DNA of 64,000 nucleotides, taken from NCBI GenBank assembly GCA_964585295.1, contig CAZPCY010000002.1, positions 102,745 to 166,744 of the forward strand, written 5' to 3'. Numbering within the stretch: position 1 is the stretch's first letter; every line of letters begins with the position of its first letter. Below the pieces are notes generated by a model. That model saw only the letters and a list, made by a program, of their open reading frames with translations, was not told where the DNA came from and ran no database searches. The stretch is from an uncultured Candidatus Poseidoniales archaeon (lineage in GTDB: Archaea > Thermoplasmatota > Poseidoniia > Poseidoniales > Thalassarchaeaceae). The position numbers were made by a program, and so were the translations under genes. This document shows, piece after piece, positions 9,786 to 53,500 of the stretch.

Positions 9786-12749
9786 ATGACTGGGATGCAT
9801 GGCGAGGACCGTGAGTCCTCTGTGGATTGGCACCTGCTAACTGTGGATGATTCCATGTCACGGCTAGATGTTACTAGAGACGGTCTCAGCGAAAGCGAGG
9901 TCGCCCGTCGACTAGTGGAGAACGGCCCGAACAAGTTGGATGAACCAGAACCCATCCACTGGATTTGGAAACTACTGGAACAGTTCAGAGACCCGATGGT
10001 CTACCTCCTACTACTGGCAGCCGCCATTGCATTCGTATTCGATCGGGAGGATATCGGCACCCCCATCTTCATCTGCATCGCATTGTCCTTGAATGCGGTC
10101 TTTGGATATATGCAGGAACAGAAGGCGGAACAGGCGATGGATAGCCTGAAGCAATTGCTGGTCAGTCAATGCGTGGTCGTTCGAGATGGGACTGAGCACC
10201 GCATCAGCACTGAAGGCATCGTCGCAGGTGACATCGTCTGGCTAGAGGAGGGGTTGAATGTACCAGCTGATCTTCGAATCATTGAAGCGAATCGCCTTCG
10301 AATAGACGAATCCTCGCTGACTGGCGAGTCTGCAACGGTATCGAAGTATCCCGATTCACTTTCCGAATCGACCATTCTCGCTGAGAGGAAGAACATGGCC
10401 TACATGGGTACTGTGGTGAGCTCAGGTCGAGGTTCTGGTTTGGTAATCCAAACAGGTATGCAAACCGAACTGGGGAGAATCGCCAAAGGAATCACTGATG
10501 TGGAGGCCCCAAAAACTCCTCTCGAGATCAAACTCGAATCGCTCGGACGTTTTCTTGGATATGTCGCACTTCTGAGCGCTGCATCACTGGTCAGTCTCCA
10601 CGTCCTAGAAGCAATACTGATGGGGAAAACCGGGAACCAATTGTACGAAGTCGTGTCCGACCAATTCCTGATCGCAGTTGCAATCTTCGTCGCTATTGTT
10701 CCTGAGGGGCTACCTATCATCCTAGTAATCACCCTAGCAATTGGAATGCGGAACATGGCCCGCCACCGTGCCATAGTCAGGAAGATGCGCGCGGTTGAGA
10801 CATTGGGTTCAACCACAGTCATCTGCTCCGACAAGACAGGGACCCTTACCACTGGTCAGATGACTGTACGTAGATTCCACTTCGCAGGTGTAGATTACGA
10901 CGTATCCGGGCGTGGTTATGACCCCACATCCGGCAGTCTCATTCTGAAAGGGGAAATCCAAGAGCCGAACGCTCAAAATGGACTTTCTGATTCATCCGAA
11001 TACAAATTGGCGTTGTCTGTAGCCACCCTATGCCAGAACAGCAACGTTAGACAGGTGGATGGTCGCTGGAAAGGAGTCGGTGACCCAACAGACACCGCTT
11101 GTGCGGTATTCGGTTGGAAGTTGCAAGAATCCGTTGATTCATTGCGAGAACGCTGCCCCAGAATTAGAGAATACACCTTCGATCGCGAGCGTAAGAGAAT
11201 GGGGACGGTTCACGAGATTGATGGTGAGAGATGGCTCTTTGTGAAGGGAGCCTATGGTCCAATTAGGGATCTTTCCACAACCATCGCCACCAGTGAGGGA
11301 ACGGTTCCTTTGGACGAGAATCATCTAAGGCTAATTCGGGAAGTCAATACCGGCATGGCCGAATCAGCACTCAGGGTCCTCACACTAGCCGTAAGAAAAT
11401 TGGATGAGGATGAGGATCTCGACGATGTAGAGGCGATTGAATCGAATCTTACTCTCCTCGGCATGATTGGCATCGCGGATCCACCGAGAGCAGAGGTTCC
11501 CGAAGCAATCAGAAGGTGCCAAGGAGCGGGCATCCGGGTCATCATGATAACCGGCGATCAACAGAAAACCGCGGAAGCAATCGGCAAAGAAATCGGTATT
11601 ATGGATGACACCCATAGAAGCATCACTGGGTGGGAACTGGAAGAGATTGACGATGAAGAACTCGAAGAGATAATCGATGAGATCTCGATATTCTCTCGGA
11701 CCACTCCCGAACAGAAGCTCCGAATCGTCGAATGTTTGCAGAGGAGAGGAAATGTTGTCGCCATGACCGGTGATGGCGACAACGATGCACCTGCTTTGTC
11801 TAGGTCCAACATCGGCATATCGATGGGGATTGGAGGCACCGATGTCGCCCGTGATGCTAGTGACATGGTCTTGCAAGACGATGACTTCTCATCCATCGTG
11901 GAGGCGGTAGAAGAGGGGAGGAAGATCTACGAGAACATCCGAAACTTCGTCCGATACCAGATTTCTACTAATGTGGCGGCGGTGACGTTGATTCTGGTTT
12001 CGACATTTATCTTCGGTTGGAAACCTCTGCCCCTGACCGCTACTCAATTGTTGGTGATCAATATCCTGATGGATGGGCCCCCTGCAGTCGCGCTGGGTAT
12101 TGAATCGCAATCAAAGGACGTGATGATGGAGAAACCGAGGCCACTCGACGAAACTCTGCCGACTCCTCCTGATGTACTGCTGATTCTGTTCCTCGGACTG
12201 GTGATGGTCGTAGGTACCGCTTCCGTGTTCTATTTCGCTGGCGGTGGAATCATGGTACAGGATCCTTGCACCGAGTTCGATGGGTCGATAGAACAGGGAT
12301 GGATCGAGCAATACAGCGAGGATGGTACGACTTGCGATGGGGCTGCCGAGGCTGCTTGGAGGTCGGATGCCGAGAATCGATTCGCGATGGCTCAGACGAG
12401 CACCTTCGCAGTGTTCATTCTGTTTCAATTGTTCAATGTCATGAATTGCCGATCCTCTGAGGACAGTGCATTCCGAATCGGACTGCTAAGGAACAACTGG
12501 ATTACAGCATCCTTCTTCATATCGGCCGCTTTCCTCGTCGCCTTGGTGCAAGGAGCCGATATTATCGTACCTCTCATCGGCATAGCCATCGGAGACCTAG
12601 TTGCTACCAGCCCCCTACAATTGAGCGATTGGGGAATCGTGGCAGCGACCGCCACGACAGTGTTCATCGCTGAAGAGATTCGAAAACTGATCTTCAAGTT
12701 GAATCAATCAACTAGAGCGGTGAATTATCAGAAAGACAGTTCTGGGTGA
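9786..12749 (+). CDS. P-type cation-transporting ATPase, Ca2+-ATPase (P2) type
   Basis: LTGES, DKTGTLT, KGAYG, MITGD and TGDGDNDAPAL motifs; 987 aa with an insertion in a late luminal loop. Confidence 0.9.
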   Translation: MTGMHGEDRESSVDWHLLTVDDSMSRLDVTRDGLSESEVARRLVENGPNKLDEPEPIHWIWKLLEQFRDPMVYLLLLAAAIAFVFDREDIGTPIFICIALSLNAVFGYMQEQKAEQAMDSLKQLLVSQCVVVRDGTEHRISTEGIVAGDIVWLEEGLNVPADLRIIEANRLRIDESSLTGESATVSKYPDSLSESTILAERKNMAYMGTVVSSGRGSGLVIQTGMQTELGRIAKGITDVEAPKTPLEIKLESLGRFLGYVALLSAASLVSLHVLEAILMGKTGNQLYEVVSDQFLIAVAIFVAIVPEGLPIILVITLAIGMRNMARHRAIVRKMRAVETLGSTTVICSDKTGTLTTGQMTVRRFHFAGVDYDVSGRGYDPTSGSLILKGEIQEPNAQNGLSDSSEYKLALSVATLCQNSNVRQVDGRWKGVGDPTDTACAVFGWKLQESVDSLRERCPRIREYTFDRERKRMGTVHEIDGERWLFVKGAYGPIRDLSTTIATSEGTVPLDENHLRLIREVNTGMAESALRVLTLAVRKLDEDEDLDDVEAIESNLTLLGMIGIADPPRAEVPEAIRRCQGAGIRVIMITGDQQKTAEAIGKEIGIMDDTHRSITGWELEEIDDEELEEIIDEISIFSRTTPEQKLRIVECLQRRGNVVAMTGDGDNDAPALSRSNIGISMGIGGTDVARDASDMVLQDDDFSSIVEAVEEGRKIYENIRNFVRYQISTNVAAVTLILVSTFIFGWKPLPLTATQLLVINILMDGPPAVALGIESQSKDVMMEKPRPLDETLPTPPDVLLILFLGLVMVVGTASVFYFAGGGIMVQDPCTEFDGSIEQGWIEQYSEDGTTCDGAAEAAWRSDAENRFAMAQTSTFAVFILFQLFNVMNCRSSEDSAFRIGLLRNNWITASFFISAAFLVALVQGADIIVPLIGIAIGDLVATSPLQLSDWGIVAATATTVFIAEEIRKLIFKLNQSTRAVNYQKDSSG

Positions 12750-13964
12750 TTGACCTTGGATGATGTTAGGCGCAATGGTGCGCCCGATTGGAGAGAGAGG
12801 TTGTCCGGAATCACAATCTCGCATCTAATCGACCCCAAACTCAAACTCGCAAAACGAATCATCGAAACCGGGGATTCGATAGATGGTTCCCTTGCTTTGG
12901 GCATCCTCAAGGAAACACCACTGAACGAATTGACTTCACTCGCTCACGCCATCAAGGTAGCACGCTTCGGAAATGAGGTGTTCTTCAATTCCAATCTACA
13001 TGTCAACCCAACCAACATCTGCGTCCTAGCATGCCGATTCTGCGCCTTCCGAAGGGGCCCGAAAGCCTCTGATTCCTATGCCCTGAATGTCGATCAATAC
13101 CTATCGAGAATCACACCCTATGCAGATCGGATTGACGAGGTTCATTCGGTAGGGGGACTGCACCCGGAATGGACCATAGAACACTACGAACAATTGTTAT
13201 TCTCTACGAAATCAACTCACCCACACATCTCGCTGAAATGTCTGACTGCAGTAGAGGTGAAGCATGTCGCTCAGATGTCTTCGTTGTCAATCGAAGAAAC
13301 ACTGAGGAGGCTTATGGCAGCAGGTCTCACCTCTTTGCCTGGTGGGGGTGCAGAGATTCTGGACGATAATATTAGAGCCAGGATCTGCAATGGCAAGGAG
13401 ACCAGTGCGGAATATCTTTCGATACATGAGACGGCGCATCGACTAGGGCTGCCAACCAACTGCACGATGCTTTTCGGAACCATAGAGAGCCACCAGCATC
13501 GAATCTCACACCTCATCGCTCTCAGGGATTTACAGGATCAGACGGGGGGTTTCCAATGCTTCGTTCCATATCCATTCCTCCCCGATCATTCTCGCCTCCC
13601 GGATGCACAACTATCCACGGGGATTGAAACGATTCGGATGATCGCCATCTCACGGTTACTTCTCGATTCGATACCTCACATCAAGGCGTACAGGATGAAC
13701 ATAGGCGACCATCTGGCACAGACTGCCCTATTATCAGGGGCAGATGACATAGATGGTACGGTTGGTCAGGAGGAGATAATGCACGAAGCTGGATCCATAG
13801 CTCCATTGGATCACGATCTAGATGATGTGGCTCGCCTAATTGAGGCTGCAGGATGTATTCCAGTGAGAAGGGACACGACTTACCGAGAATTCTGGATTCA
13901 TCGGCCACAACCGCCCCCTCCAAGAGGATCTGGCGGCCGTCTCCCAGTGGTAGGATCTGCATGA
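12750..13964 (+). CDS. mqnE: Radical SAM enzyme of the futalosine pathway, MqnE (aminodeoxyfutalosine synthase)-like, possibly MqnC
   Basis: CVLACRFCAF (CxxxCxxC) radical-SAM cluster in an NLHVNPTNIC context; TTG start immediately after the ATPase stop. Confidence 0.7.
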   Translation: MTLDDVRRNGAPDWRERLSGITISHLIDPKLKLAKRIIETGDSIDGSLALGILKETPLNELTSLAHAIKVARFGNEVFFNSNLHVNPTNICVLACRFCAFRRGPKASDSYALNVDQYLSRITPYADRIDEVHSVGGLHPEWTIEHYEQLLFSTKSTHPHISLKCLTAVEVKHVAQMSSLSIEETLRRLMAAGLTSLPGGGAEILDDNIRARICNGKETSAEYLSIHETAHRLGLPTNCTMLFGTIESHQHRISHLIALRDLQDQTGGFQCFVPYPFLPDHSRLPDAQLSTGIETIRMIAISRLLLDSIPHIKAYRMNIGDHLAQTALLSGADDIDGTVGQEEIMHEAGSIAPLDHDLDDVARLIEAAGCIPVRRDTTYREFWIHRPQPPPPRGSGGRLPVVGSA

Positions 13965-14761
13965 TGGTCGATGGCAATTGGACCCGCGTGGTCGGAAGGG
14001 TGTCGTTCGCCAACTGTGATCCTCTATTCGATGGCCTGTCGGATGAATGGGGAATTCTTCCTGCCCCTCCAGCCTGGCTAACCTCCCATCTCCTGAACAG
14101 GGATTGTATCGTTGCACCGATTCCGGTGGCTGATCTTTGCGCAAATATGGAGAAACTAGTATCGCTTCGGGGTTTGGGTATTGCTAGTGATGGTCCCGTG
14201 GGTAGTGTAATACTGTTTGGAAATCGTACCATCGAACGCATGAGGGATATCGCGGTTCCAACCGACTCCTCTACCTCAAAGGCACTCATACCATGGTTGT
14301 TATCCTACCGGGGCATAGAACCTCGAATGGTCGAGATGGGGCCGGATCTCCCCACCATGCTGGAGAGATGTGATGGTGCTCTGCTCATAGGTGATCGTGC
14401 ACTCGACGAGGCAAGAAAAAACCCGGAACTAGTAAGGTTGGATCTGGGTCGTTCTTGGACTGAAACGACTGGTACCCCGATGGTCTTCGGAGTTTTCGCT
14501 GCCAGAAGGGACTCGCCGAGGGAGGTCGTGATGCGAATCAGAGACGATTTGTTTTCGAATCTGAGAAGATTCGAAGGCGATGATGAACATAGGAAGAAAG
14601 TCATCAAGAACAGTGCCCAAAGAATAGGATTCCATGAGGAAAGGATGCGCGAATATCTCATCGACGAAGTCAGAAATAGAATCGGTGAAAGAGAGGAGGA
14701 GGGGCTACTTAGGTTTGCATCAGAAGTATGTGGAGTCTCATCTATCGACTGGCTGGATTAA
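13961..14761 (+). CDS. mqnA: Chorismate dehydratase MqnA (futalosine pathway)
   Basis: N-terminus VVGRVSFANCDPLFDGL matches the MqnA RIGxISYLNxxPF signature; periplasmic-binding-protein-like fold family; ATGA overlap with the upstream gene. Confidence 0.7.
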   Translation: MMVDGNWTRVVGRVSFANCDPLFDGLSDEWGILPAPPAWLTSHLLNRDCIVAPIPVADLCANMEKLVSLRGLGIASDGPVGSVILFGNRTIERMRDIAVPTDSSTSKALIPWLLSYRGIEPRMVEMGPDLPTMLERCDGALLIGDRALDEARKNPELVRLDLGRSWTETTGTPMVFGVFAARRDSPREVVMRIRDDLFSNLRRFEGDDEHRKKVIKNSAQRIGFHEERMREYLIDEVRNRIGEREEEGLLRFASEVCGVSSIDWLD

Positions 14762-14762
14762 G

Positions 14763-17345
14763 TCAGTCGTCATTTCTCCTCTTCCTCTTCACAGCCCGAC
14801 GCCTCCCCCCTTTCTTCTCACCTGAATTGGGGCTTGATTCATCGGCGAACATCTTGGATATTGCTTGGTCGATATCCGAGTAATCGGATTCTCCCGCAGA
14901 CTCACTGCTACCTATTTCGACCTCATCATTAGCCGTTTCATCAGGTACTTCCTTGACAACCTGTCGAACCCGTCTCTTCGGAATCGTAGTGACTCCCCTC
15001 TGATCCGGGGGTGGCCTAGGTGGAGCTCTCTGATCTGGAGGTGGCCTCGGTGCTCGGGAAACGCCTTCTTCTTCCTCCCTATCCTCCCCCCAGCTCTCGT
15101 TATCCACTTCATGTTCCTCTGCCCAATTCGCCCACTCATCTTCAACACCAGTGATTGCGATCTGCAGTTCCTCAAGGTCTATGACGCCGTTTCCATCCAC
15201 GTCTAGGTTGAGGACGAGGGCTTCCAATTGCTCCGTAGGAAGGGCCGCAATTCGCAGTGATATCAAACCACTAAGGAGTTCATCGGATTCAAGATATCCA
15301 TTCTGATTGGTATCGAATCGGTTGAACATTTCCTCTACGGTGACATCATTCTCCCTCATCCAACGGAGTAGTTTGTCCATGACCTGATCATATACAAACA
15401 AGGCATCACACTCATCACACATTACGGCGTTGATGTTGTTCAGAGCCCCACAGAATTCACACTCCATGGAATCGAAATCGATTTTGTTCCTACCTCTGAT
15501 CAGCACCATAGAAAGTCCCAAGATTGCTCCGGTAACGAAGAGGGCTGCCCACCAGTATTCGAGAATAATCGATAGCATGGATTCGGAAAACGTTGGGTCT
15601 TCTTCGATGAGTGGTTCAATGGAGAGAATCAGAGGGACTTGGTCGGGACGCAGGGCGTCGCTACTCGCCTGAGGACCGTCTGCGAGAGCGGTTGAATACC
15701 GAATTGGCTGATGTGGCATCGATTCCATTATCGACCCATCCACTGGGCCAGGGAAATTTAGCAGGTGTACATCGAATGGAGGTATGACAATTGCACTCGA
15801 TGAGGCGGTCGTAGTCCAAGTAATACGGATGTGATCCCTATCGTTGTGTGTTACCGTAGTTCCCCTCAATCCAGCCGAAACCTCGCATGTGGAAGTAATC
15901 ACATCGATGAACGTTCCATTCACCCTGACTGATGAACGCCATGCCTCAGTGTGTTCAGAGACATCGTAATCTCCACACAATGCTTCCTCCATCCTCTCCT
16001 CTTCAAAGACATCGACTGCGAAATCACGACTTGAAGGCGTCATAGCCGCCAAACGCCGGATCATCTGACTGTTAGTCAGGTTCAATGTCAGAGTATCCGT
16101 TACAATTACGCTGCCGCTCTCCACAATCACTTGGACCCTCCTGATGGTTTCTGGATCCGGGCTCTTGGTACAGTCATTCGCACCGACGCAGATGTTGTCA
16201 AACCCATCAGGATGCCCATCGCCGTCGTCATCATAATCGTATTCGTCAGGAATTCCATCTCGATCGAAATCCGGGCCGCTTATTGGGGCTGTGGAAGGTC
16301 GCGGTTCCGACCTCAAAACGACTACTATCTCCTTGCCGTTGGATACCGCCAATTCATTGCCATCTGGACTCACATCGCCCTGTCCGAAGGAATGGCCTAG
16401 TGACCTTCCAGACAATTTCTTGAGGGTGGTCAAATCATGGCTCTCGATCGAAGCATCCTCTCGATTAGTGAACACATGTAGCACTCCTTTGCGTTCATTG
16501 GGGAGCAACTGAATCACATGGCCAGAAGTTTCGATGAATCCTAGGTAATCTCCTGCTGGCTGCGATCTAATCTGGATGAGTGCATCGGCTGACCAAATTA
16601 TCTTACTCCCATTGTGAGCAAATGTACAATCAGATAGACCGCTCGTGGTTTCGTATTCAAGCAATATCGACTTGTTGGAGAAATTATAGGTTCGCAAGAA
16701 TCCCTTCTCGCCAGTGGTATGGGAACCAATCATGAGCGTCTCTCCATCTCCACTGATGTCGTGGCAGACAAATGTCTCTCCTGATTGGGGAGCCAAGAAC
16801 CAATCCTTGACGGGCCCCCCATCTGAGTGATTCCATAAGTTGAGGACTCCCGAATCCTCGATTGAGAAGAATGCTGGAGCATTTGGATACACCGTCAACT
16901 GATCCACATCCTGCCCAATCTCCACCGAACTAACCCTCGTCCAGGTTTCCGTGTCTATGATGGATACGGCGGGAGTCGAAGGTATCGACGATCGTTGGCC
17001 AGCAATGAGATACCTATCATCATCCTCGAATTCAATAGATAGCACTGAATCTGTTGGTTCGTCTTGGATGATAACGTAACCGACCTGTTCATCAGTTATG
17101 GTGTCCCATATTGTCACACCATTCTCGTGTCCAACAGCGAGCCATGAACCATCATTGGAGTAGGTAACGGGTGAAGCGAAATCCTTGTCTGATCCTGCAT
17201 CAAGGAAGTGATCGATGCTGTATGTAGGGTCAGCAACTACGACGGAGCTGAACATCGGCAGCATCATCGCAGCCAGCAGCAGCCACGCCCTCAGGCCAGC
17301 CATTGAACTCCTCTGGCATGCCGTATGTATTGAGTATGTGGTCAA
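14763..17345 (-). CDS. Single-pass membrane receptor-like protein: signal peptide, WD40-like beta-propeller, one TSP3-type Ca-binding repeat, TM, cytoplasmic Cys4 zinc ribbon plus EF-hand pair, acidic/proline-repeat/basic tail
   Basis: Signal peptide LLLAAMMLPMFSSVVVA; WD-like repeats (GSWLAVGHENGVTIWD); DRDGIPDEYDYDDDGDGHPDG; TM WWAALFVTGAILGLSMVLI; CEFCG...CDEC; two canonical 12-residue EF loops (DTNQNGYLESDE, DVDGNGVIDLEE). Confidence 0.7.
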   Translation of the reverse strand: MTTYSIHTACQRSSMAGLRAWLLLAAMMLPMFSSVVVADPTYSIDHFLDAGSDKDFASPVTYSNDGSWLAVGHENGVTIWDTITDEQVGYVIIQDEPTDSVLSIEFEDDDRYLIAGQRSSIPSTPAVSIIDTETWTRVSSVEIGQDVDQLTVYPNAPAFFSIEDSGVLNLWNHSDGGPVKDWFLAPQSGETFVCHDISGDGETLMIGSHTTGEKGFLRTYNFSNKSILLEYETTSGLSDCTFAHNGSKIIWSADALIQIRSQPAGDYLGFIETSGHVIQLLPNERKGVLHVFTNREDASIESHDLTTLKKLSGRSLGHSFGQGDVSPDGNELAVSNGKEIVVVLRSEPRPSTAPISGPDFDRDGIPDEYDYDDDGDGHPDGFDNICVGANDCTKSPDPETIRRVQVIVESGSVIVTDTLTLNLTNSQMIRRLAAMTPSSRDFAVDVFEEERMEEALCGDYDVSEHTEAWRSSVRVNGTFIDVITSTCEVSAGLRGTTVTHNDRDHIRITWTTTASSSAIVIPPFDVHLLNFPGPVDGSIMESMPHQPIRYSTALADGPQASSDALRPDQVPLILSIEPLIEEDPTFSESMLSIILEYWWAALFVTGAILGLSMVLIRGRNKIDFDSMECEFCGALNNINAVMCDECDALFVYDQVMDKLLRWMRENDVTVEEMFNRFDTNQNGYLESDELLSGLISLRIAALPTEQLEALVLNLDVDGNGVIDLEELQIAITGVEDEWANWAEEHEVDNESWGEDREEEEGVSRAPRPPPDQRAPPRPPPDQRGVTTIPKRRVRQVVKEVPDETANDEVEIGSSESAGESDYSDIDQAISKMFADESSPNSGEKKGGRRRAVKRKRRNDD

Positions 17346-18724
17346 ATCGAGGGGTCGACATACTCCAAATCAGTTGATTGGACCCATTCTAGCAAATCCA
17401 ATGCGACTTCGCATGATTCGGCAATGACGGTCGATTCATCATCAACGAATCTCTCTAGTGTCGCAATTGCTCGACGATCTCCTATCGCTCCAAGAGCCTC
17501 TGCGGCTTCGTGCCGAACCATGACATCCTCCTGTAGATCCTCTAATCTGTTGATCAGATGATCAACGGCCGAAGGATCCTGCATCTGACCCATTACGTAC
17601 GCGACCTCATGCTTCAACAAAGCGGAAGCGGAGCCAAATGAGGCTGCAAGGGCGTCAACCGCTCCCGTACCACCGATGTTTCGGAGAGCGAAAAGAGACC
17701 GCATTCGCTCAAACATCCTAGCGTTCTCATCACATAGTTTCATCCTCAATTCATCGACCATGTCATTGTCACTCGGGGGTGCCGGATCAACCGAATCGAA
17801 CCTAGACCTAGGTGGTGAAACCGTCTCTCCAACGAACTCGATTCCGTCGACATCGAGATCTGTGGGTACCATTCCTATTCGTTGACCCTCTCTCAGGAAC
17901 AATCTAACCGCGCGACGGCCGTCGGTCCCATAATCCAAAGTCCGAGAATTAACGTACATTCCTACAAATTCAGAATTGGTTTCATCATCGATCCCACGTC
18001 CCCACTGTTTGGCGAAATCAAGTGCATCCTTAGGATGATTCATTGCGTGTTCGATCGATCTTCGTACATGCTCAGTCACCGTATTGATCGCTTCTATTCC
18101 AAGATCTCTTCGAATCACATTTCCTCCAAGTGGAAGAGGAAGCCCCCACCTCTCCATCCACCATTCTCCCAAATCCATAATGAGATGTAGGCGATGCTCT
18201 CTATAGGTCAGTTGACCCTCGTGAATCACTAATCCGATGTCGACATCACCAGCTGATACTGATTCCATTATTCGGTCGAACGGGATGATTACTGTGTCAA
18301 CATCCCCGAATGCGATTCGGAGTGCTAGATGAGCGCTGGTCATCTCACCAGGTATCGCGATTCTAGCGCCCCTAGCCTCCTCGATGCTTAGTTCATCACG
18401 AGCCACAAGCCTAGGTCCATATCCCTCCCCCATCGATGCACCGCAATTCATCAGAACATAACGATCTAAAACTTGGGGCAACGCATGGATACTGACTGCG
18501 GTAACCTCGTGATGTCCTTTGAGAGCAAGGTTGTTTAGAGTCTCGATATCCACCAATTCGTGTTCGTAATCATAGCGCCCTGTGTCTATCGCACCTGTCG
18601 TCAAAGCGTGGAACATGAACGCGTCATCAGGATCAGGAGAATGTCCGATTCGGATGGTCTGCCCATCATCCATGATTGTCACCCAATCAGAACCGGTTGA
18701 AAACGGTGATGACCGAGCACTCAC
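17342..18724 (-). CDS. mqnD: 1,4-dihydroxy-6-naphthoate synthase MqnD fused to a C-terminal HEAT-repeat domain that resembles one lobe of deoxyhypusine hydroxylase
   Basis: N-terminus IRIGHSPDPDDAFMFHAL matches the MqnD SPCPNDTF signature; C-terminus has LKHEVAYVMGQM and VRHEAAEALGAIG His-Glu HEAT motifs; ATGA overlap with the downstream gene. Confidence 0.7.
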   Translation of the reverse strand: MSARSSPFSTGSDWVTIMDDGQTIRIGHSPDPDDAFMFHALTTGAIDTGRYDYEHELVDIETLNNLALKGHHEVTAVSIHALPQVLDRYVLMNCGASMGEGYGPRLVARDELSIEEARGARIAIPGEMTSAHLALRIAFGDVDTVIIPFDRIMESVSAGDVDIGLVIHEGQLTYREHRLHLIMDLGEWWMERWGLPLPLGGNVIRRDLGIEAINTVTEHVRRSIEHAMNHPKDALDFAKQWGRGIDDETNSEFVGMYVNSRTLDYGTDGRRAVRLFLREGQRIGMVPTDLDVDGIEFVGETVSPPRSRFDSVDPAPPSDNDMVDELRMKLCDENARMFERMRSLFALRNIGGTGAVDALAASFGSASALLKHEVAYVMGQMQDPSAVDHLINRLEDLQEDVMVRHEAAEALGAIGDRRAIATLERFVDDESTVIAESCEVALDLLEWVQSTDLEYVDPSI

Positions 18725-19009: not shown

Positions 19010-20251
19010 GTGGCAACGGTTCAAGGCCCCTCTCAACCCCCCACTGAGCCGATGGTCACCGGTTGGGCTCGCTACGCCTTCAGATTTGGTGAGCATTACC
19101 GAAATCGAAACGCTGCTGAATATTGGACCCCCCCACGACTCAGACACCGAGAGTGGATGTTCACCCGTTGGGATGGAAGGCCACCAGAACGGCACAGATC
19201 ATTCAGAACGATGGAACAATTGCATCAGAGGATTGTAACCGACCCACCACACAGTTGCTTCCACAGCACAGCCTACTACACCGATGCTGGCGCGTACAAG
19301 ATGGATGAGAAGGGCTGGCAGGGTGCGGATCTGATCTTTGATCTCGATGGCGACCACTTACCTGGAGTCACCGACCTAGACTTCCCATCGATGCTGGAAC
19401 AGATACAGGAGGAAGCATGGAAACTATGGAATGACTTCCTAGAACCGGATCTTGGATTCAGAGAAGAGAACCTTCAACTAACCTTCTCTGGTCACCGAGG
19501 ATTCCATCTCCACTATAGGGACCCTCATCTCCTCTCTCTCGATCGAGATGCGAGGCGTGAGATCGTCAGCCACATCAGAGGGGAAGGTGTCTCAATCGAC
19601 GCCGTCATGCGAGGTGGATTGCACGGTTGGCGAAGAAGAATCGAATCTGGGATTGAGAATGTGATAGAGAGGCTGGAAGCACTCGCCGGCGGAGACGAAG
19701 ATCAGCGAAAACATCTGAGGTCGTTTATCTCCAAGAGAGCAGCAGCAAGGGATGCAGAGGTGAAGAGGATGTCTAATGCTGAACTCGATGAACTCGCGAG
19801 ACTCTCGACAAACTCTGATTCCAGACGTAGACTTCTGGATTCCAAGTATCGCCGCAACGTCTTCGGCCGACGGCTTAATGACGTCTTCTGGGAACTCGTC
19901 CGAGGCGATGCCAGCGTGATCCTAGGCGGGGCAGGAGAAACTGATGAGGGTGTCACCGTGGATGTGAAGAGAGTAATCAGATGGTTATCGAGCCTGCATG
20001 GAAAGAGCGGACTCGAAGTGACTGAATTCCCGCTGAATAGATTGGACCCTGATGGAACCAATCCATTCGATGCGTTGACTGAGGCCGTACCCTTCCAAGG
20101 AGCGGCCAACGAACGTGTCCGACTATTGCACGATGACATCAGGGCGAGAATCTCCGATGAGACGGTCGAGGGATTTGAAGGAGATGAGTTGGAAACCACT
20201 GAATCAATGGCGATGTTCCTGACTTTGAAAGGGTGGGCGGAACCTCTCTGA
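19010..20251 (+). CDS. priS: DNA primase small (catalytic) subunit PriS
   Basis: GADLIFDLDGDHL catalytic aspartate motif and YHSxAxY-like region typical of archaeo-eukaryotic primase; true start may be the MVTGWA Met at 19052. Confidence 0.85.
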   Translation: MATVQGPSQPPTEPMVTGWARYAFRFGEHYRNRNAAEYWTPPRLRHREWMFTRWDGRPPERHRSFRTMEQLHQRIVTDPPHSCFHSTAYYTDAGAYKMDEKGWQGADLIFDLDGDHLPGVTDLDFPSMLEQIQEEAWKLWNDFLEPDLGFREENLQLTFSGHRGFHLHYRDPHLLSLDRDARREIVSHIRGEGVSIDAVMRGGLHGWRRRIESGIENVIERLEALAGGDEDQRKHLRSFISKRAAARDAEVKRMSNAELDELARLSTNSDSRRRLLDSKYRRNVFGRRLNDVFWELVRGDASVILGGAGETDEGVTVDVKRVIRWLSSLHGKSGLEVTEFPLNRLDPDGTNPFDALTEAVPFQGAANERVRLLHDDIRARISDETVEGFEGDELETTESMAMFLTLKGWAEPL

Positions 20252-21420
20252 TGAGAGTTCAGGATAGACAACAACATCAGCCAATGTTAAAACCGAACCT
20301 AGGGTCAAGGCTAACATCGGTGGAGATGATGTCAGGCGGCTCATCAGACGAGACCTTGCCGCCGCCACCTCCCCCGCCTGGTGCAGGACTCCCTCCACCA
20401 CCAGCCCCACCACCCCCTCAACTAACCCCATCCGAACTGCCACCACCTCCAACTCCTCCTTCTTCAGAACAAGTCATCCCCAGCACCTCAAATGATGGAG
20501 ATAGCCCAGCAATCAACGAGGCCAGTATCTCGGCCGCTACCGGTCCCGAACTAGATTCAGGTGGATCCAATGTAGTCAATCTAAACGCATTAGGAGGACC
20601 CACTTCGGAATCCGCTGTGAACCGAGACCAGATGTACGGGCACATTGACCGCATCGCAACCGGTGAAGTGGGGACCCTACTCGATCGATTCGCAGATCGC
20701 TTCGGAAGCGAGCTCGATCGAGAAATCATTGTCCTTCGACGGAAGGAGCAGCAGGAGGCCAGAACCGCACAGCCGACCGTAGAACTAATTTCTCTGCCTG
20801 ATGACGATGAGCAAGAGGAGGAAGAACCCGACGTCGAAGAAGAAGAGGAGTGGGAGGAAGAGGAGACAGAAGACCTGCCCGAACTCCCACGTGAAGCCGA
20901 GAAGCGCATCGATTCTGAACTAGCTAGGATCTCCAAGCAGATCAAGCCCTTGCAGCAGAAATACAAGCTGGCGAAGCAGCGGCGACAGAACAGCAAGGTC
21001 GCCAAATTGTCCCCTAAGTTGAGGGGGCTGATAGATCGACGGGATTTGCTTTTGGATGTGAAGGAAGGGCGCAAGCACCCCTCTGCACTAGCTAAGAGCA
21101 AGCCTAAGAAGGCGAAGCCAATGGCTTCAGAATCGGAATCCGAGGTAGGAGACGACCTCTTTCCCGATTTCGTCAACATCGTCAATGACCTGCTAGGTGA
21201 CATGCCAGACGAATTCGTCGAGGCATTCATCGCAACGGAAGGGTTCTCTCTCCTCCAATCCGTGGCTGAGGATCCAGAGGAAGCGAGTGATGAACTGCGA
21301 TCTGCATTCTTCCAGATGGCGAACAAGGAACTTGGAGAATTGCCAGAGAATAAACTCGATGCCTTCGTTAAGAGCGAGGGCTTCGCCATCTTCCAGTCAA
21401 TGGGAGAACTCTACGGGTGA
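20233..21420 (+). CDS. Acidic low-complexity protein with a long polyproline tract and a duplicated C-terminal (D/N)xFVxAFIxxEGFxxxQS motif
   Basis: PPPPPPPGAGLPPPPAPPPPQLTPSELPPPPTPP; acidic EEEE blocks; overlaps the priS 3' end and the next gene start. Confidence 0.55.
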   Translation: MGGTSLMRVQDRQQHQPMLKPNLGSRLTSVEMMSGGSSDETLPPPPPPPGAGLPPPPAPPPPQLTPSELPPPPTPPSSEQVIPSTSNDGDSPAINEASISAATGPELDSGGSNVVNLNALGGPTSESAVNRDQMYGHIDRIATGEVGTLLDRFADRFGSELDREIIVLRRKEQQEARTAQPTVELISLPDDDEQEEEEPDVEEEEEWEEEETEDLPELPREAEKRIDSELARISKQIKPLQQKYKLAKQRRQNSKVAKLSPKLRGLIDRRDLLLDVKEGRKHPSALAKSKPKKAKPMASESESEVGDDLFPDFVNIVNDLLGDMPDEFVEAFIATEGFSLLQSVAEDPEEASDELRSAFFQMANKELGELPENKLDAFVKSEGFAIFQSMGELYG

Positions 21421-34726: not shown

Positions 34727-36619
34727 ATGGGAGAGTCCGAAGACGACATCGAAATGGCCACTTGTGGAGCTTGCCAAGCGGTAATCCCTCTCGACTCATC
34801 AGGATGCCCCGCGTGCGGCGTTTCATTCACTGGTGTAATGGAGGATGACCTCGGAGAATGCGGTGCCTGCGGTGCCTTGGTCAGTCTCGATTCCAGCGAA
34901 TGCCCCCAATGTGGTGTTCTCTTCGTACATGATGATGTCATCGCTGTATTGCGCGAGTGGATGCAGAACACCGGTTTCACGGTAGACCAGTTGTTCGGCA
35001 GATTCGATGAGGATGGCGATGGGAGCATAGACACGGATGAGTTGCGCAATGGCCTCGTGGCGATGAGGATCGCAGTCCTACCACCCGTCGAAGTAGATCG
35101 ATTAATCGCGATTATCGATGCAGACGGCAATGGCACCATTGAGATGGAGGAGTTGCACGCAGTTCTATCCGATGGCGATGCCGAAGACTCGGTGGGCGAA
35201 GCCGCCTCCGGAGATACTGAAGAGGATGCAGCCGAAACAGATGATGCTGAAGAGGAAGCGGATTCTGTAACCGACCTAGCCGCCATCGCAGCGATGGTCG
35301 AAGATGAGGAGGAATCCTCTGATGATGTTGAGGCGGATGAAGATGAATCATCCGATGAACCAGAGGGAACGACAGAAGCATCTGAGACAGAAGAGCCCGA
35401 GGATGTTCAAGATTCCACAGAAGAGGAAATTTCCGAGGAAGATGACGACTTGGATGAAGACATCGAGGCGGACGTACTTGAGGATGAACTAGAAGCTGAC
35501 AAAGAAGTAGAGCAGGTTGAAGAATCCGGAGACGATGAAGCAGATACGGAGGAAATCTCCGACGAAGATGGCTTAGAATCTGATGAAGACGCAGAATCGG
35601 ATGTTGACGATGAATCGAATGATGAAGAGGAATCAGCTGAAGACGAATCAACCGATGAAGATGAAGAATCCGACGAGATCGAATCGGAAGAAGATGAGAG
35701 CTCCGAGGAGGATGAAGAATCCGCTGCAGAGGACGATTCGAGAACTGCCTCAGAACCTCAACCTTGGCAAATATTCCTGATGAAGAACTACGAGAATTTC
35801 TTCCCGATAATGTATGTAATAGGATCCATCCTGCTTCTCGGAGCCGCCGCGAATGCAATGGTTGGCCCGGTGGATGGAACAGCCGGAGTCATAGCATACG
35901 ACGGTGATGCCACAACCACATACGACTTCAACTGGGATGATGAGGCAATCAAATCCATGGTGACGAGCGCCGGCTACGAATTGAGCGGCTCCGTCGAACC
36001 TGGTGAGAATTATCCCTGCGATCCGGAAATCCAATTGTCGAAGTGCAGAAATTCACTTACCCCGTTATCCGGGACATCCAGCTCTATGCCCCTCGGATGG
36101 TATTGGGATGGTGTTCTTGGAACCATTCTGGCGGTCGCGATGTTGGCAGTTACTGCGTTAGTTCAGAATCGCATCAAGTCGATGAGGGCCGAGGTTCGCA
36201 AGGATAGTAGTGATTCTACTGAGGACAATCAGGAAGATGATTCTGGGGAAGAGGATAGTGTCAATGATGATGACCCGGAATCCGCCGTAGACCAAGAGGA
36301 CGAAGTCGAACAGGTCGAATCCGAGGATGAAGAAGAGGATGAGGAACCGGAACTCGACGATTCGGAATCAGAAGATGAAGAGGAACTAGAGGACGAGGAT
36401 GATTCCGAAGAGGAGGAAGATGACGATGAAGAATCCGAGGATGATGAGGATGATGACGAAGTCGATATCGGAGACCGAGTCGGTGTCGTGATTGATGGTG
36501 AGGACATGTGGGGCGAAATTGTCGACTTCGATGGGGATGACAATGTCATCGTGCTCCTAGAGGAGAACGACGAGGAAGTCACCGTCGACTGGGACGATCT
36601 GTTCCTCGACGAGGATTGA
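34727..36619 (+). CDS. Membrane protein: two N-terminal Cys4 zinc ribbons plus EF-hand pair, polyacidic region, 2 TM flanking an extracellular loop, polyacidic C-tail ending in a small beta domain
   Basis: CGAC...CPAC, CGAC...CPQC; EF loops DEDGDGSIDTDE and DADGNGTIEMEE; hydrophobic segments IMYVIGSILLLGAAANAMVG and VLGTILAVAMLAVTALV; more than 250 residues of D/E-rich sequence. Confidence 0.65.
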   Translation: MGESEDDIEMATCGACQAVIPLDSSGCPACGVSFTGVMEDDLGECGACGALVSLDSSECPQCGVLFVHDDVIAVLREWMQNTGFTVDQLFGRFDEDGDGSIDTDELRNGLVAMRIAVLPPVEVDRLIAIIDADGNGTIEMEELHAVLSDGDAEDSVGEAASGDTEEDAAETDDAEEEADSVTDLAAIAAMVEDEEESSDDVEADEDESSDEPEGTTEASETEEPEDVQDSTEEEISEEDDDLDEDIEADVLEDELEADKEVEQVEESGDDEADTEEISDEDGLESDEDAESDVDDESNDEEESAEDESTDEDEESDEIESEEDESSEEDEESAAEDDSRTASEPQPWQIFLMKNYENFFPIMYVIGSILLLGAAANAMVGPVDGTAGVIAYDGDATTTYDFNWDDEAIKSMVTSAGYELSGSVEPGENYPCDPEIQLSKCRNSLTPLSGTSSSMPLGWYWDGVLGTILAVAMLAVTALVQNRIKSMRAEVRKDSSDSTEDNQEDDSGEEDSVNDDDPESAVDQEDEVEQVESEDEEEDEEPELDDSESEDEEELEDEDDSEEEEDDDEESEDDEDDDEVDIGDRVGVVIDGEDMWGEIVDFDGDDNVIVLLEENDEEVTVDWDDLFLDED

Positions 36620-49216: not shown

Positions 49217-52200
49217 ATGACGACACCTGCCCGGGACTCAACGACCGTTACGACAGCCATGGTATTGATTGCCATGATGCTGCTTTCGACGTATGGATAT
49301 GCGACCCCTGATACGCTTTCCGAAGATTGGCGGCAAGAGAGCAAATCCGCGCCTACGGGGGCGATGACCACGACCTTCAACCAAACCCATGTCGGCTGGA
49401 ACGATACTATTCTTATCCACCATGCGCTGAGCGGGCTTTCCTCATCCCACTCCTACGAGGTTTCTTGGAAAATTTGTGAAGGAAACGCAGTCCACCACGG
49501 ATGCCATGACAGAGCATACGAACATTCAGACACTGGTCAGAATACCCTCTTTGAAGGGACGCACACGGTGCCAACAGGGGTCACCTCATTCCTCGTAATC
49601 CACACACTGCACACGAATTTGACCCGGAGCTCCTCAGGTGGTCATCAGACAAATGGAACCTACACACTAGTCGCCCAGATGATATCGAATACCTATGTCG
49701 TCGATACCGAGAAAAAGGTCTTCCAAACGGTCGGGGATGGATCGGGATTCTGGCATGTAGACGACAGCCCTGATGGACATATGCAACCTTACCTGAACCA
49801 GACGGCATACATGGTTAACGACCCGGTAACGGCCATCGTCGACAATCGCTTGGCCTGTGATCCGAGTGGAGATTGGGGGATTCACTGGGAGATTTTCGAT
49901 GATGCGACGAGCAATAGCGTGTTGACGGGTAGCGAGATCTCCACTAGGTCCTGTACGCACAGGTACGTGTACAGCCGCAGTGATTGGAATCCGAAGTCGT
50001 CTGGAATGTCTAGAGGAGTGCAACTTACCAGCACTGGTCTCGCTGGGGGTAACTACACAGTAGTGCTCGATCTCGTGCAGGAGGACAGCGGCATCAAAGT
50101 TGCAACCCATAGCGCTCAGTTCCAGGTCCTAGATGTCCAATTCACCGGTAACGAGGATTTCACAGTATTTTTCAGCAACGGCAGATACCTAGATGCTGAT
50201 TCTGACAACCTTGAATTCATTGTGAATGTGACCGGACTAGCACCAACCAATACTTCCTCAGGGACTGATATACCGTATCAGATTGACTGGAGGATATGCT
50301 CCGGCAACTACACTCGGAGAGGATGTTACCAGCAGAGTTATCCCGTAAATCAGAGCGGTGGGCAGAACGAAAAAGCCCGTGGAAGCGAACAAATTCCATT
50401 GGGTCATACAAGTGATTCCATCACCATCCAAGTATCCGCCGAACTCGGATCGCACGCCAGTGCTAGCCAATCACAGAATGGAACGCATTCGTTGATTATC
50501 TCACTCACAGCACTTTCCTACACGCTGGCAGTGGAGAAACCCACCGTGATGATCCTCGGCCAAGAGGGGAACGCCTACTGGGATACTGCGAAGGGAAGAT
50601 ACGGATGGCCTATCTTGGACAACAGCGGATATCTAGTCAACATGTCAATTTCCCTCGATGTCAGGATGACACTTTCCTGTGACCCAACATCGGAATGGAG
50701 ATTGGAATGGAATTTCGTGGACACCTCTGACCAAACTGTTGCTCACACTGACGGTGTCGAAAAGACCCTGGCCTGCTCGGCATACTATCCGTGGGACAGG
50801 CAACATTGGCACCCTAAGACTCCGAACAACAACAACATGTTGGAACTCACCTCATCTGGATTGGAAGCTGGTGACTACAGGCTTACGCTGTCAATCATTC
50901 AGAATGACAGTGGAGTGTCGGTACTGAGTCACTCTTTCGACTTCGCGGTGGTCGATGTGACTCTGACGGGGGCCGAGGTCATGGCATTGAGCGGAGACTC
51001 GAATCTGGGTCGGCATGTTCCTTGGGGGTCCGATTTCTTCCCAAGGGTGAATGTCACCGGCTTGGATTCCAACACCGATTACGATGTATTCTGGGAAGTC
51101 TGCGAGGGAGATGCGGATGCCGCGGGATGCCGCCAGCCAGCGTTCTTCCTAAAGGCCTCGATGAATTCGATTCTCGATCACGAATGGGACGTTTGGGATG
51201 TTGGTACAGATTCGGAGTCAGACGATTTCGCTCTCCGAGTCTACACGAGAATGTCAGGTGAGAATAATTTGAATGACCGGAGAAACGGGACATACTCGGT
51301 AATCGTCTCACTGAGAACAGAGACTCACACCTTGGTCAAACAGCACATCGAATTCATGGTGGTCGGCGCGCCCGATGCGGCCCGTTGGACCACATGGAGC
51401 CAACCCGGAGGGATACCATCTCTTCCGACGGGCGCCTACCTGAAGAACAGTTCAGTAGAGCTCGAGGTCCTTACCGAACTAGGATGCTCACCGGCATCGA
51501 CTTGGGGATTAAGATGGGAGATTACCAATCTCGACACCGCAAGCATTCTTCCTGTGGAATGGATAGAGCAGAGTGTTTCATGCGAGCCTTACGCTAGGAA
51601 TCACAAGCATAACCGCAGGTGGGTCAGCGGCACCTCCAATTCGATGCTTGAACTCTCACCTGGACTTGACAGTGGCAACTACTCTGTCGAATTGACATTG
51701 GTCCAGAATGACAGCATAATAGATGTGCTGTCTATCACTGATGAGTTCAGAGTAGTTGACGATTGGGAGGTGCTCGACGGATCGATGATTGGCCTGACTA
51801 CAGGGGCAACAGATGAGTTATCAGAGGTATACGCTAATTTCAGCATGGTCAACCAGTTGAACGATGAATGGTACAATGTCGATTGGATTATGGTGAACTC
51901 GACCGACTGGACCGAGATCGACAACGGTACATTCGGGTATCTTTCAATCTCGGACGAATACGTTCGTAACCAGACAATAGTAGGTGTTGTCGGCGAAGGA
52001 TACTGTATCAATGCAACGCTACGCAAGGGCCAGGATATCATCAAGGACACCGCGAGCGCCTGTTCTTCAGCCATCCAACCACCTCCTGACGAGGATGATG
52101 ATGGCGTTCCCGATTCGGCGGATACTTGCCCGGGAACTGAATTCAACTGGACGATAGATGCATCAGGATGCGCCCAGAACCAAATCGACGATGATGGCGA

Positions 52201-53500
52201 TGGTGTCTTCAATCACAATGACACCTGCATCGGTACCGATTCTGCTAACTGGACCGTCGATGCAGACGGTTGCGCAGATAACCAGTTGGACAGCGATTCC
52301 GACGGAGTCATGAATGATATCGACCAATGTTCCGACACCGACCAAGGGGCGACCGTTGATGCAGATGGATGCTCACAGTTGCAACTCTCAGACACGGACT
52401 CCGATGGGGTGAACGATCAGGATGACGAATGTCCATCCACGCCGGCGACAGATGTTCCTACTGTCAATGATATCGGTTGCGGGTCCACGGAACGAGACGG
52501 GGACGGCGATGGTTGGGTGGACGCTGAGGACGACTGCCCTAACACACCTCCCGGTGGGGTAATCGAAGACCGTGGCTGCCAATCAGACACCATCGACACC
52601 GATCAGGATGGAATTGTCGACATCAACGACCTCTGTCCGAACACGCCTGGTGGCCCAATTGCCATGATAACAGTCGATGCCGATGGTTGTGCCGAGTCCC
52701 AGAAGGACGATGACGGCGACCTAGTGATGAATGACGTGGACAACTGCACCGAGACAGACAGTGCCAATTGGACGGCTGATGCCGAGGGGTGCGCTCCAAA
52801 CCAACTGGACTCGGATACCGACGGAATCACCAACGACCTCGATATATGTCCAACTAGTTCGTTCGGAGCAATCGTGGATGTGGTGGGCTGCGAGGACAGT
52901 GATGGCGACTCAGTGAACGAGTACAATGACACATGTCCTGGCACACTGACAACGGAGGCTACCCTCGTTGATGAGTTCGGCTGCGGACCCAGCCAACGCG
53001 ACACGGATGGAGACACTGTAAACGACGCGGATGACCTCTGTCCGGAGGTTGCAGGCTTGACAAAGCGTGGTGGCTGCCCGCCGAACACACCTCCAGTATG
53101 CTCGGTCTACGCATCAGCGAAGGTGGATGGCATCGACGTCACCGGAGATGCGATTCTACCAACTCTCGACCTGACAATCATCCCGACCATCGATCTTCCG
53201 ACGGGCGAGTACTATCTCATCCTGAAATGCTGGGACGAGGATGGGTCCAATGTCACAGTCAACCTGAATGGGATAGAGGAGACCGGTGAGGAAGTCGTTC
53301 TCGGAACTTTGGTTAGTGTCGATGAGAACACTGAACCGATGGATGTCAATGCTCAATTCAGCGATGGGGAGACGACCAAGACAATCTCTCTGAGAGTGCG
53401 ATTCAGCAGCGATTCCCAAGCCACACCAGGATTCGGTGCAATCGCATCCTTCGTCGCGTTGCTGGGTGCAGCGAGCGCAATCCAAAGGAGACGCGATTGA
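49217..53500 (+). CDS. Giant secreted surface protein (1427 aa): signal peptide, three tandem about 320 aa units each composed of two domain types, about 10 TSP3-type Ca-binding repeats, PGF-CTERM sorting signal
   Basis: Signal peptide MVLIAMMLLSTYGYA; repeated blocks (SWKICEGN.../DWRICSGN.../FWEVCEGD... and LACDPSGDW.../LSCDPTSEW.../LGCSPASTW...); DxDxDGxxNDxDxC repeats; C-terminal PGFGAIASFVALLGAASAIQRRRD; many N-x-S/T sequons. Confidence 0.8.
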   Translation: MTTPARDSTTVTTAMVLIAMMLLSTYGYATPDTLSEDWRQESKSAPTGAMTTTFNQTHVGWNDTILIHHALSGLSSSHSYEVSWKICEGNAVHHGCHDRAYEHSDTGQNTLFEGTHTVPTGVTSFLVIHTLHTNLTRSSSGGHQTNGTYTLVAQMISNTYVVDTEKKVFQTVGDGSGFWHVDDSPDGHMQPYLNQTAYMVNDPVTAIVDNRLACDPSGDWGIHWEIFDDATSNSVLTGSEISTRSCTHRYVYSRSDWNPKSSGMSRGVQLTSTGLAGGNYTVVLDLVQEDSGIKVATHSAQFQVLDVQFTGNEDFTVFFSNGRYLDADSDNLEFIVNVTGLAPTNTSSGTDIPYQIDWRICSGNYTRRGCYQQSYPVNQSGGQNEKARGSEQIPLGHTSDSITIQVSAELGSHASASQSQNGTHSLIISLTALSYTLAVEKPTVMILGQEGNAYWDTAKGRYGWPILDNSGYLVNMSISLDVRMTLSCDPTSEWRLEWNFVDTSDQTVAHTDGVEKTLACSAYYPWDRQHWHPKTPNNNNMLELTSSGLEAGDYRLTLSIIQNDSGVSVLSHSFDFAVVDVTLTGAEVMALSGDSNLGRHVPWGSDFFPRVNVTGLDSNTDYDVFWEVCEGDADAAGCRQPAFFLKASMNSILDHEWDVWDVGTDSESDDFALRVYTRMSGENNLNDRRNGTYSVIVSLRTETHTLVKQHIEFMVVGAPDAARWTTWSQPGGIPSLPTGAYLKNSSVELEVLTELGCSPASTWGLRWEITNLDTASILPVEWIEQSVSCEPYARNHKHNRRWVSGTSNSMLELSPGLDSGNYSVELTLVQNDSIIDVLSITDEFRVVDDWEVLDGSMIGLTTGATDELSEVYANFSMVNQLNDEWYNVDWIMVNSTDWTEIDNGTFGYLSISDEYVRNQTIVGVVGEGYCINATLRKGQDIIKDTASACSSAIQPPPDEDDDGVPDSADTCPGTEFNWTIDASGCAQNQIDDDGDGVFNHNDTCIGTDSANWTVDADGCADNQLDSDSDGVMNDIDQCSDTDQGATVDADGCSQLQLSDTDSDGVNDQDDECPSTPATDVPTVNDIGCGSTERDGDGDGWVDAEDDCPNTPPGGVIEDRGCQSDTIDTDQDGIVDINDLCPNTPGGPIAMITVDADGCAESQKDDDGDLVMNDVDNCTETDSANWTADAEGCAPNQLDSDTDGITNDLDICPTSSFGAIVDVVGCEDSDGDSVNEYNDTCPGTLTTEATLVDEFGCGPSQRDTDGDTVNDADDLCPEVAGLTKRGGCPPNTPPVCSVYASAKVDGIDVTGDAILPTLDLTIIPTIDLPTGEYYLILKCWDEDGSNVTVNLNGIEETGEEVVLGTLVSVDENTEPMDVNAQFSDGETTKTISLRVRFSSDSQATPGFGAIASFVALLGAASAIQRRRD
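52085..53090 (+). repeat. About 10 tandem 33-aa thrombospondin-type-3-like calcium-binding repeats (Q.D.D.DG..ND.D.CP......vDa.GC) inside the giant surface protein gene
   Basis: Repeats counted directly in the translation; coordinates approximate. Confidence 0.6.

Follow-up and report, generated by a model that had tools for sequence, protein, structure and literature searches.

What kind of protein is encoded by the long open reading frame (ORF) on the minus strand at positions 14763–17345 of a 64,000-nucleotide stretch of DNA from an uncultured Candidatus Poseidoniales archaeon (assembly GCA_964585295.1, contig CAZPCY010000002.1, positions 102,745 to 166,744; hereafter the window)? A sequence-only reading had described the product of this 860-codon ORF as a eukaryote-style receptor with a calcium sensor inside the cell, co-transcribed with a menaquinone gene. 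Marine Group II archaea, the order Poseidoniales, are among the most abundant archaea of the surface ocean and are still uncultured, and a core single-copy protein that spans their envelope and carries docking motifs would be a handle on the link between cell surface and interior. We consider it about an even bet (probability roughly 0.5) that the ORF encodes a transmembrane scaffold or receptor-like protein with juxtamembrane EF-hands that make its cytoplasmic interactions depend on calcium.

Membrane topology and domain architecture

Amino acid numbers for the ORF are counted from its first codon, TTG. Positions in the structural model and in the family alignment follow the 846-aa protein that begins at a downstream ATG (P0001) and are 14 lower. 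Hydropathy analysis revealed only two hydrophobic segments, a signal-type segment at aa 18–41 and a transmembrane (TM) segment at about aa 595–617. The predicted signal peptide, MAGLRAWLLLAAMMLPMFSSVVVA, with cleavage before DP, is encoded at 17232–17303 of the minus strand, and an N-terminal hydrophobic segment was detected in 31 of the 34 family members analysed. The TM helix (15495–15563, minus strand; helix 584–605 in the structural model) has a counterpart at about positions 570–615 in all 34 members. It is followed by the positively charged juxtamembrane sequence IRGRNKIDF; arginine- and lysine-rich residues stand at this place throughout the family (IRGRNK in the target, RRRNxIDF family-wide), which fits the positive-inside rule. 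The ectodomain cysteines C180, C226, C372, C378, C443 and C473 are invariant or conserved in at least 90% of members.

Hydropathy, the positive-inside rule, the conserved ectodomain cysteines and the family pattern together predict a type I single-pass membrane protein with its N-terminus outside, its C-terminus inside and its EF-hands in the cytoplasm. The EF-hands are placed in the cytoplasm because positive residues follow the TM helix and because the same ribbon/EF-hand module is found elsewhere at the N-terminus of a protein without a signal peptide. The topology and domain order first read from the letters (propeller outside, one TM helix, EF-hand inside) are supported: the EF-hands were not placed outside the cell, and the region proposed as a propeller does adopt that fold in the predicted structure.

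The structural model was built by AlphaFold2 (AF2) with the 34-sequence family alignment and reached a mean predicted local distance difference test score (pLDDT) of 79.3 and a predicted template modelling score of 0.66; it was used in place of a single-sequence model that was unusable at pLDDT 34. Residues 29–331 (16311–17219, minus strand) were modelled as 28 strands forming seven four-stranded blades, with pLDDT above 90. Foldseek searches of PDB and BFVD returned propeller matches only, and the top PDB matches were all WD40 domains. The best of them, 5yzv (E 2.5e-17, TM-score 0.85 normalised to the target), is the prokaryotic WD40 domain of PkwA, a likeness that extends to the fold only. 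TM-scores to WD40 domains were 0.80–0.85 over about 310 columns, at 10–20% identity. At the sequence level the target matched propeller families weakly, with 14.5 bits for Pfam WD40 (PF00400 / CL0186) against a cutoff of 27, which the relatives P0005 (40.6 bits) and P0010 (39.4 bits) exceed. FG-GAP families were absent from the Pfam matches of the target at E ≤ 0.1. The extracellular beta-propeller of the sequence-only reading thus gains a predicted fold, that of a seven-bladed WD40-type propeller.

The propeller is followed by a predicted double acidic calcium-binding motif, DxDxDG..DxDDDGDG..D..DNIC-x5-C (16170–16277, minus strand), with the sequence DRDGIPDEYDYDDDGDGHPDG at aa 361–381 of the 860-aa ORF; alignment columns D345–D362, C372 and C378 are invariant across the family. 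Each of the six linker peptides tested had TSP_3 (PF02412) as its best Pfam match, always below the gathering score of 25 (15.1 bits for the target linker, 12–22 bits for six family members). The claim of a thrombospondin type 3 (TSP3) calcium site holds as a resemblance: the acidic sequence is present and TSP_3 is its top match, but the scores are sub-threshold. Like type 3 repeats of thrombospondin, the segment has an acidic DxDxDGxxDxxD...DNC sequence with flanking cysteines; unlike thrombospondin, it has two tandem motifs only and not a full wire domain.

Between this segment and the membrane, residues 388–562 (15618–16142, minus strand) are predicted to form an alpha/beta domain with pLDDT of about 90, in which Cys443 is invariant and Cys473 nearly so (at least 90%). 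Pfam and PDB sequence searches found no relatives of this domain, and a profile search with the middle-domain alignment returned two fragments only. A PDB match of the middle-domain profile to the PP7 coat protein (E 0.004, per-domain E 8) was judged to be due to chance.

Distribution of the family and its conserved position

The window itself is archaeal; its genes include one for a PriS primase and one for a PGF-CTERM/TSP3 surface protein (49217–53500). A phmmer search against 1.84 billion cluster representatives found two full-length relatives, P0003 and P0004, both at 33% identity, and about 35 proteins of 700–850 aa that match residues about 10–615, that is, the ectodomain and the TM helix. 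A homologue search with the target alone returned the target itself and one weak WD40 match, and a profile search with the alignment of the whole family was dominated by matches to generic multi-WD40 proteins.

Scanning one genome per GTDB species identified 12 loci. They belong to Poseidoniaceae, Poseidoniales or unclassified euryarchaeal metagenome-assembled genomes, with the exception of one contig that was binned as Rhodobiaceae, yet has the same gene order. At every locus the target gene occupies the same position of a collinear block composed of an OPT transporter, a P-type ATPase, mqnE, a PF02621 gene, the target, mqnD (with or without HEAT repeats), PriS, two unknown ORFs and CNNM. The family is a single-copy one, kept at one syntenic position across Poseidoniales. 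Orthologues of the target share 23–34% identity, compared with 47–70% for PriS, mqnE, the P-type ATPase and the two PF02621 genes, so the target is a fast-evolving orthologue at a fixed position. Such a rate would be expected for an exposed surface protein.

No description of this domain combination or of the family was found in the literature. The nearest statement, by Méheust et al. 2022 (PMC9258230), is limited to the presence of calcium-binding domains in protein families specific to Poseidoniales. The individual domains are ordinary. The family is small and well delimited, and could easily be tested in vitro.

A ribbon/EF-hand module inserted in one subclade

In the alignment, a zinc-ribbon-like motif and a pair of EF-hands lie between the conserved juxtamembrane RNKIDF motif and the conserved tail. 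The EF-hand pair (15153–15383, minus strand) has two canonical 12-residue loops, DTNQNGYLESDE and DVDGNGVIDLEE, with D or N at positions 1, 3 and 5, G at 6, a hydrophobic residue at 8 and E at 12. It matches Pfam EF-hand_7 (PF13499; E 1.9e-10, 41.4 bits against a cutoff of 30) and is modelled at pLDDT 86–90; its PDB matches are calmodulins, with a best E of about 1e-9, and both loops are conserved within the subclade described below. The Cys4 zinc-ribbon-like motif CEFC-x10-CDEC is encoded at 15405–15461 of the minus strand (aa 629–647). It has no Pfam match in the target at E ≤ 0.1, with AF2 pLDDT of 43–53, and is homologous to the second ribbon of a DZR-matching region in another ORF of the window, 34727–36619, where DZR (PF12773) scores 27.2 bits against a cutoff of 27.3. 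Of the ribbon and EF-hand in the sequence-only reading, the EF-hand is borne out, and the ribbon is present as a Cys4 motif.

Among the cluster representatives the module is present only in the window protein, P0003, P0004 and the fragments P0013, P0017 and P0047. A metagenome scan added six more full-length contigs of the same architecture (L016–L021) and a partial one. In all six the ribbon is intact, both EF loops are canonical and the gene order is kept. This brings the subclade to nine full-length contigs. On the alignment, the module is an insertion restricted to this one subclade. Its identity within the subclade is 49–53%, against about 32–34% for the whole protein, and it is therefore the most constrained part.

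The ORF at 34727–36619 (plus strand) carries a paralogous ribbon/EF-hand module near its N-terminus (34856–35170; Pfam EF-hand and DZR), 41% identical to that of the target over 105 aa (E 2e-29). Its 630-aa product belongs to a separate Poseidoniales family of double-zinc-ribbon/EF-hand proteins (others are P0024, P0036, P0037, P0040 and P0046) that share the homologous ribbon, helix and EF pair with the target at 35–41% identity; unlike the target, they have the module at the N-terminus and possess neither a signal peptide nor a propeller. The double ribbon and EF pair are followed by a very long acidic linker, two hydrophobic segments that flank a Cys-containing loop, and a C-terminal beta domain. 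Most family members have a second EF pair after the acidic linker. Judged from these sequences, domain shuffling between the two families is the simplest history of the module. The insertion and its paralogue are candidate parts of archaeal calcium signalling, which has barely been explored.

The conserved C-terminal beta domain of the second protein (~50 aa) bears a weak resemblance to the Sm1 motif of LSm5 (E 0.07). Were it an Sm/SH3-like barrel, it could bind the proline motifs of the target described below, but this is pure speculation.

Conserved motifs in the cytoplasmic tail

The family tail comprises 125–250 residues that are mostly predicted to be disordered and contain conserved short motifs: an acidic-Trp patch, a PRPPPDQR-type motif, a D-D/E-A-L helix and a basic terminus. 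In the window protein the proline-rich motif is present in two adjacent copies, (A)P(P)RPPPDQR (14997–15053, minus strand; aa 765–783). The copies, APRPPPDQR and APPRPPPDQR, had been read as an exact tandem duplication. In fact they have 9 and 10 aa, their DNA agrees by manual count at 22 of 27 aligned bases, with a further 3-nt insertion, and Tandem Repeats Finder detected no tandem repeat in the DNA of the gene. Variants such as PRPPPDxR and PKPPAAVxRDL occur in one or two copies in closer relatives. On this comparison the pair represents a motif that the closer relatives share, present twice, and not a duplication that is recent and exact.

The helix motif SDIDQAISKMFA (14844–14879, minus strand; AF2 helix 809–820) follows the consensus D-D/E-A-L-x-x-hydrophobic and is found in much of the family. 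Readings of this helix as a PIP-box, a MIM or a membrane-targeting element were rejected, as its residues do not agree with the known consensus sequences. The protein ends in KKGGRRRAVKRKRRNDD (14766–14816, minus strand; aa 844–860), the basic tail already recognised in the sequence-only reading, and a terminus of the KKRRRxVRRKK type is common to about a dozen family members.

Possible function and alternative explanations

We propose the following mechanism. The WD40 propeller outside the cell would serve as a protein- or ligand-binding platform for an external partner. The invariant TSP3-like acidic segment joins the propeller to the disulfide-bearing alpha/beta stalk, and seawater calcium should keep the segment loaded. 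On the other side of the membrane, the conserved tail motifs most likely dock conserved cytoplasmic partners. In the window lineage the zinc-ribbon and EF-pair module, common to a second membrane protein, was inserted directly after RNKIDF, and the EF-hands could make tail docking, or oligomerisation, calcium-dependent.

Known systems resemble parts of this arrangement. Like integrin alpha chains and prokaryotic FG-GAP surface proteins, the target is a predicted type I single-pass protein with an extracellular seven-bladed propeller and DxDxDG-type sites; as in integrin alpha, a stalk domain precedes the TM helix, and the cytoplasmic tail probably docks partners. Unlike integrin alpha, it has a propeller that is WD40-type by sequence and structure, not FG-GAP, a calcium motif after the propeller and not within its blades, and a long disordered tail with EF-hands; there is no evidence of a heterodimer. 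PknD of M. tuberculosis, a receptor Ser/Thr kinase with an NHL propeller, similarly combines a propeller sensor outside, a single TM helix and a cytoplasmic output region, but the target has no kinase or other enzymatic output domain, and its output side consists of EF-hands and short linear motifs.

The analysis establishes that the gene is real, together with the topology and folds of its product, the family, the synteny and the insertion; ligand binding, partner docking and calcium gating are steps that we infer. Several points weigh against this proposal. A purely structural or adhesive role accounts for the ectodomain equally well. The single-copy conservation across the order suggests a housekeeping role in the envelope over an environmental receptor. 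For the middle ectodomain no relatives can be recognised, the motifs of the tail resemble nothing that can be named, and AF2 models the ribbon and the TSP3-like segment with low confidence.

The alternative that survives best, possible though on balance not favoured, is a structural envelope or adhesion protein: a membrane-anchored propeller that organises or tethers the surface (S-layer, particle or cell attachment), in which the tail would only anchor or sort the protein and the EF-hands would be a lineage-specific accessory with no part in signalling. It would agree with the fast evolution of the ectodomain, with a TSP3-like calcium motif and disulfides of the kind usual in proteins of the extracellular matrix type, and with the presence of other large TSP3/PGF-CTERM surface proteins in the window. 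Archaeal surface proteins with beta-propellers are known, for example the YVTN/PKD surface-layer proteins of Methanosarcina, and provide a precedent; like the target, they are extracellular propellers that resemble metazoan cell-surface proteins, although the propeller of the target belongs to another family, PKD and S-layer repeats are absent from the target, and its cytoplasmic tail is long, conserved and equipped with a calcium sensor. This alternative also matches the interpretation of thrombospondin-type genes of Poseidoniales as adhesion factors (PMC6461757). However, motifs in a tail of 125–250 residues are conserved across deeply diverged members, beyond the needs of an anchor; the ribbon/EF-hand module is more constrained than the ectodomain; and single-copy syntenic conservation is unlike the copy-number variation of adhesins.

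The scaffold or receptor-like protein that we prefer could be part of something larger, an undescribed calcium-dependent transmembrane signalling or coupling system of Poseidoniales. An order-wide propeller core would recruit a fixed partner, the portable zinc-ribbon/EF-hand module would add a cytoplasmic calcium response, and a SERCA/PMR1-like pump encoded three genes away would possibly keep calcium low. We regard a system of this scope as doubtful. If true, it would be a calcium-gated archaeal analogue of integrin-like outside-in or inside-out signalling.

Gene start, candidate promoter and neighbouring mqn genes

The upstream gene (17342–18724, minus strand) is relevant to the function of the target only as context. 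By Pfam it encodes a PF02621 (MqnA/MqnD family) domain fused to PBS-lyase HEAT repeats; NCBIfam does not separate MqnA from MqnD for this ORF. The two parts form one 460-aa ORF in the window and are adjacent separate genes in contigs of the P0003/P0004 type (L014, 273–1602; L015, 3617–4962).

The sequence-only reading held that the target start codon overlaps the stop of this gene as ATGA and that the two appear to be co-transcribed. The junction actually reads ...TCG ATT TGA CC, and the sole overlapping start is TTG (TTGA). The start is probably not this TTG at 17345 but the ATG at 17303, codon 15 of the listed ORF, which yields a gene of 846 aa plus stop at 14763–17303 (minus strand). We prefer this ATG since three observations agree: it yields a canonical signal peptide, it is the start of the 846-aa public gene call of the Joint Genome Institute, and it lines up with the N-termini of all close homologues. 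The likely ATG therefore lies downstream of the stop, after a 38-nt spacer (17304–17341).

Within this spacer a TATA-like A/T element, AATACATA (17324–17331, minus strand), is located at −28 to −21 of the ATG. It is a weaker copy of the GATAAAT or GATATAA that is present at −28 to −22 in all eight other subclade contigs examined (L014–L021). This spacing is expected of an archaeal TATA box for a leaderless mRNA. Since the TATA-like hexamer keeps a fixed distance from the ATG, the sequences suggest that the target gene has its own promoter, with a candidate TATA box and a leaderless or short-leader mRNA. A Shine-Dalgarno-like GAGGAG upstream of the ATG in the window is not kept in relatives, and we place no weight on it.

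The gene order nevertheless invites the explanation that the target is coupled to menaquinone biosynthesis or the respiratory chain through co-transcription with mqnD. The target does lie between PF02621 genes and next to mqnE wherever flanks are present in related loci, and throughout the nine full-length contigs of the EF-hand subclade mqnD, HEAT and the target run in the same direction, separated by about 40 nt. However, 10 of the 11 GTDB-genome loci in which mqnD was seen have it on the opposite strand (in L002 it is co-oriented), the ATGA overlap is nonexistent, the TATA-like hexamer points to a separate promoter, and no enzyme or quinone-binding domain is among the Pfam and NCBIfam matches of the target. 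Co-transcription with mqnD is thus possible in the window lineage, and is neither required nor conserved. Because the collinear block also holds PriS, the OPT transporter, the P-type ATPase and the CNNM protein, the adjacency to mqn genes reflects general collinearity of the region and not shared function, and we consider the coupling unlikely.

On the other side of the target, the mqnE-like ORF (12750–13964, plus strand) and the PF02621 ORF (13853–14761, plus strand) overlap by about 110 nt as listed. The public call for the latter has 204 aa, versus 266–277 aa in relatives, and its true start is uncertain.

It is very improbable that the target is a receptor of eukaryotic descent gained by horizontal transfer: eukaryotes are the best-known source of WD40, TSP3 and EF-hand domains, and eukaryotic calmodulins and WD40 proteins are among the best PDB matches, but these similarities are generic (calmodulin E about 1e-9, WD40 Foldseek identity 10–20%), the top structural match is itself prokaryotic, a paralogue of the EF-hand module lies in this same archaeal genome, and the full-length relatives that could be located in genomes are all archaeal and syntenic. 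What remains of the "eukaryote-style" receptor is the architecture; all relatives found are archaeal (Poseidoniales), and "receptor" is read from that architecture.

Other genes in the window

The P2-type ATPase gene of the collinear block (9786–12749, plus strand) is three genes from the target and is kept in the block across Poseidoniales. Its best NCBIfam matches are calcium pumps, of the PMR1 type (679 bits) and the SERCA type (600 bits), both below equivalog cutoffs; these similarities would fit cells that actively extrude calcium.

Beside PriS, a 395-aa ORF (20233–21420, plus strand) combines a striking polyproline region at the N-terminus, PPPPPPPGAGLPPPPAPPPPQLTPSELPPPPTPP, with a C-terminal half of acidic/coiled-coil character; it belongs to no Pfam family and is syntenic in all related loci. 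Two large surface proteins are encoded farther along the plus strand: a 1427-aa protein with TSP3 repeats and a PGF-CTERM archaeal sorting signal (49217–53500), and a 1355-aa protein with CARDB, FixG_C-type Ig-like and NPCBM-associated domains (58409–62476).

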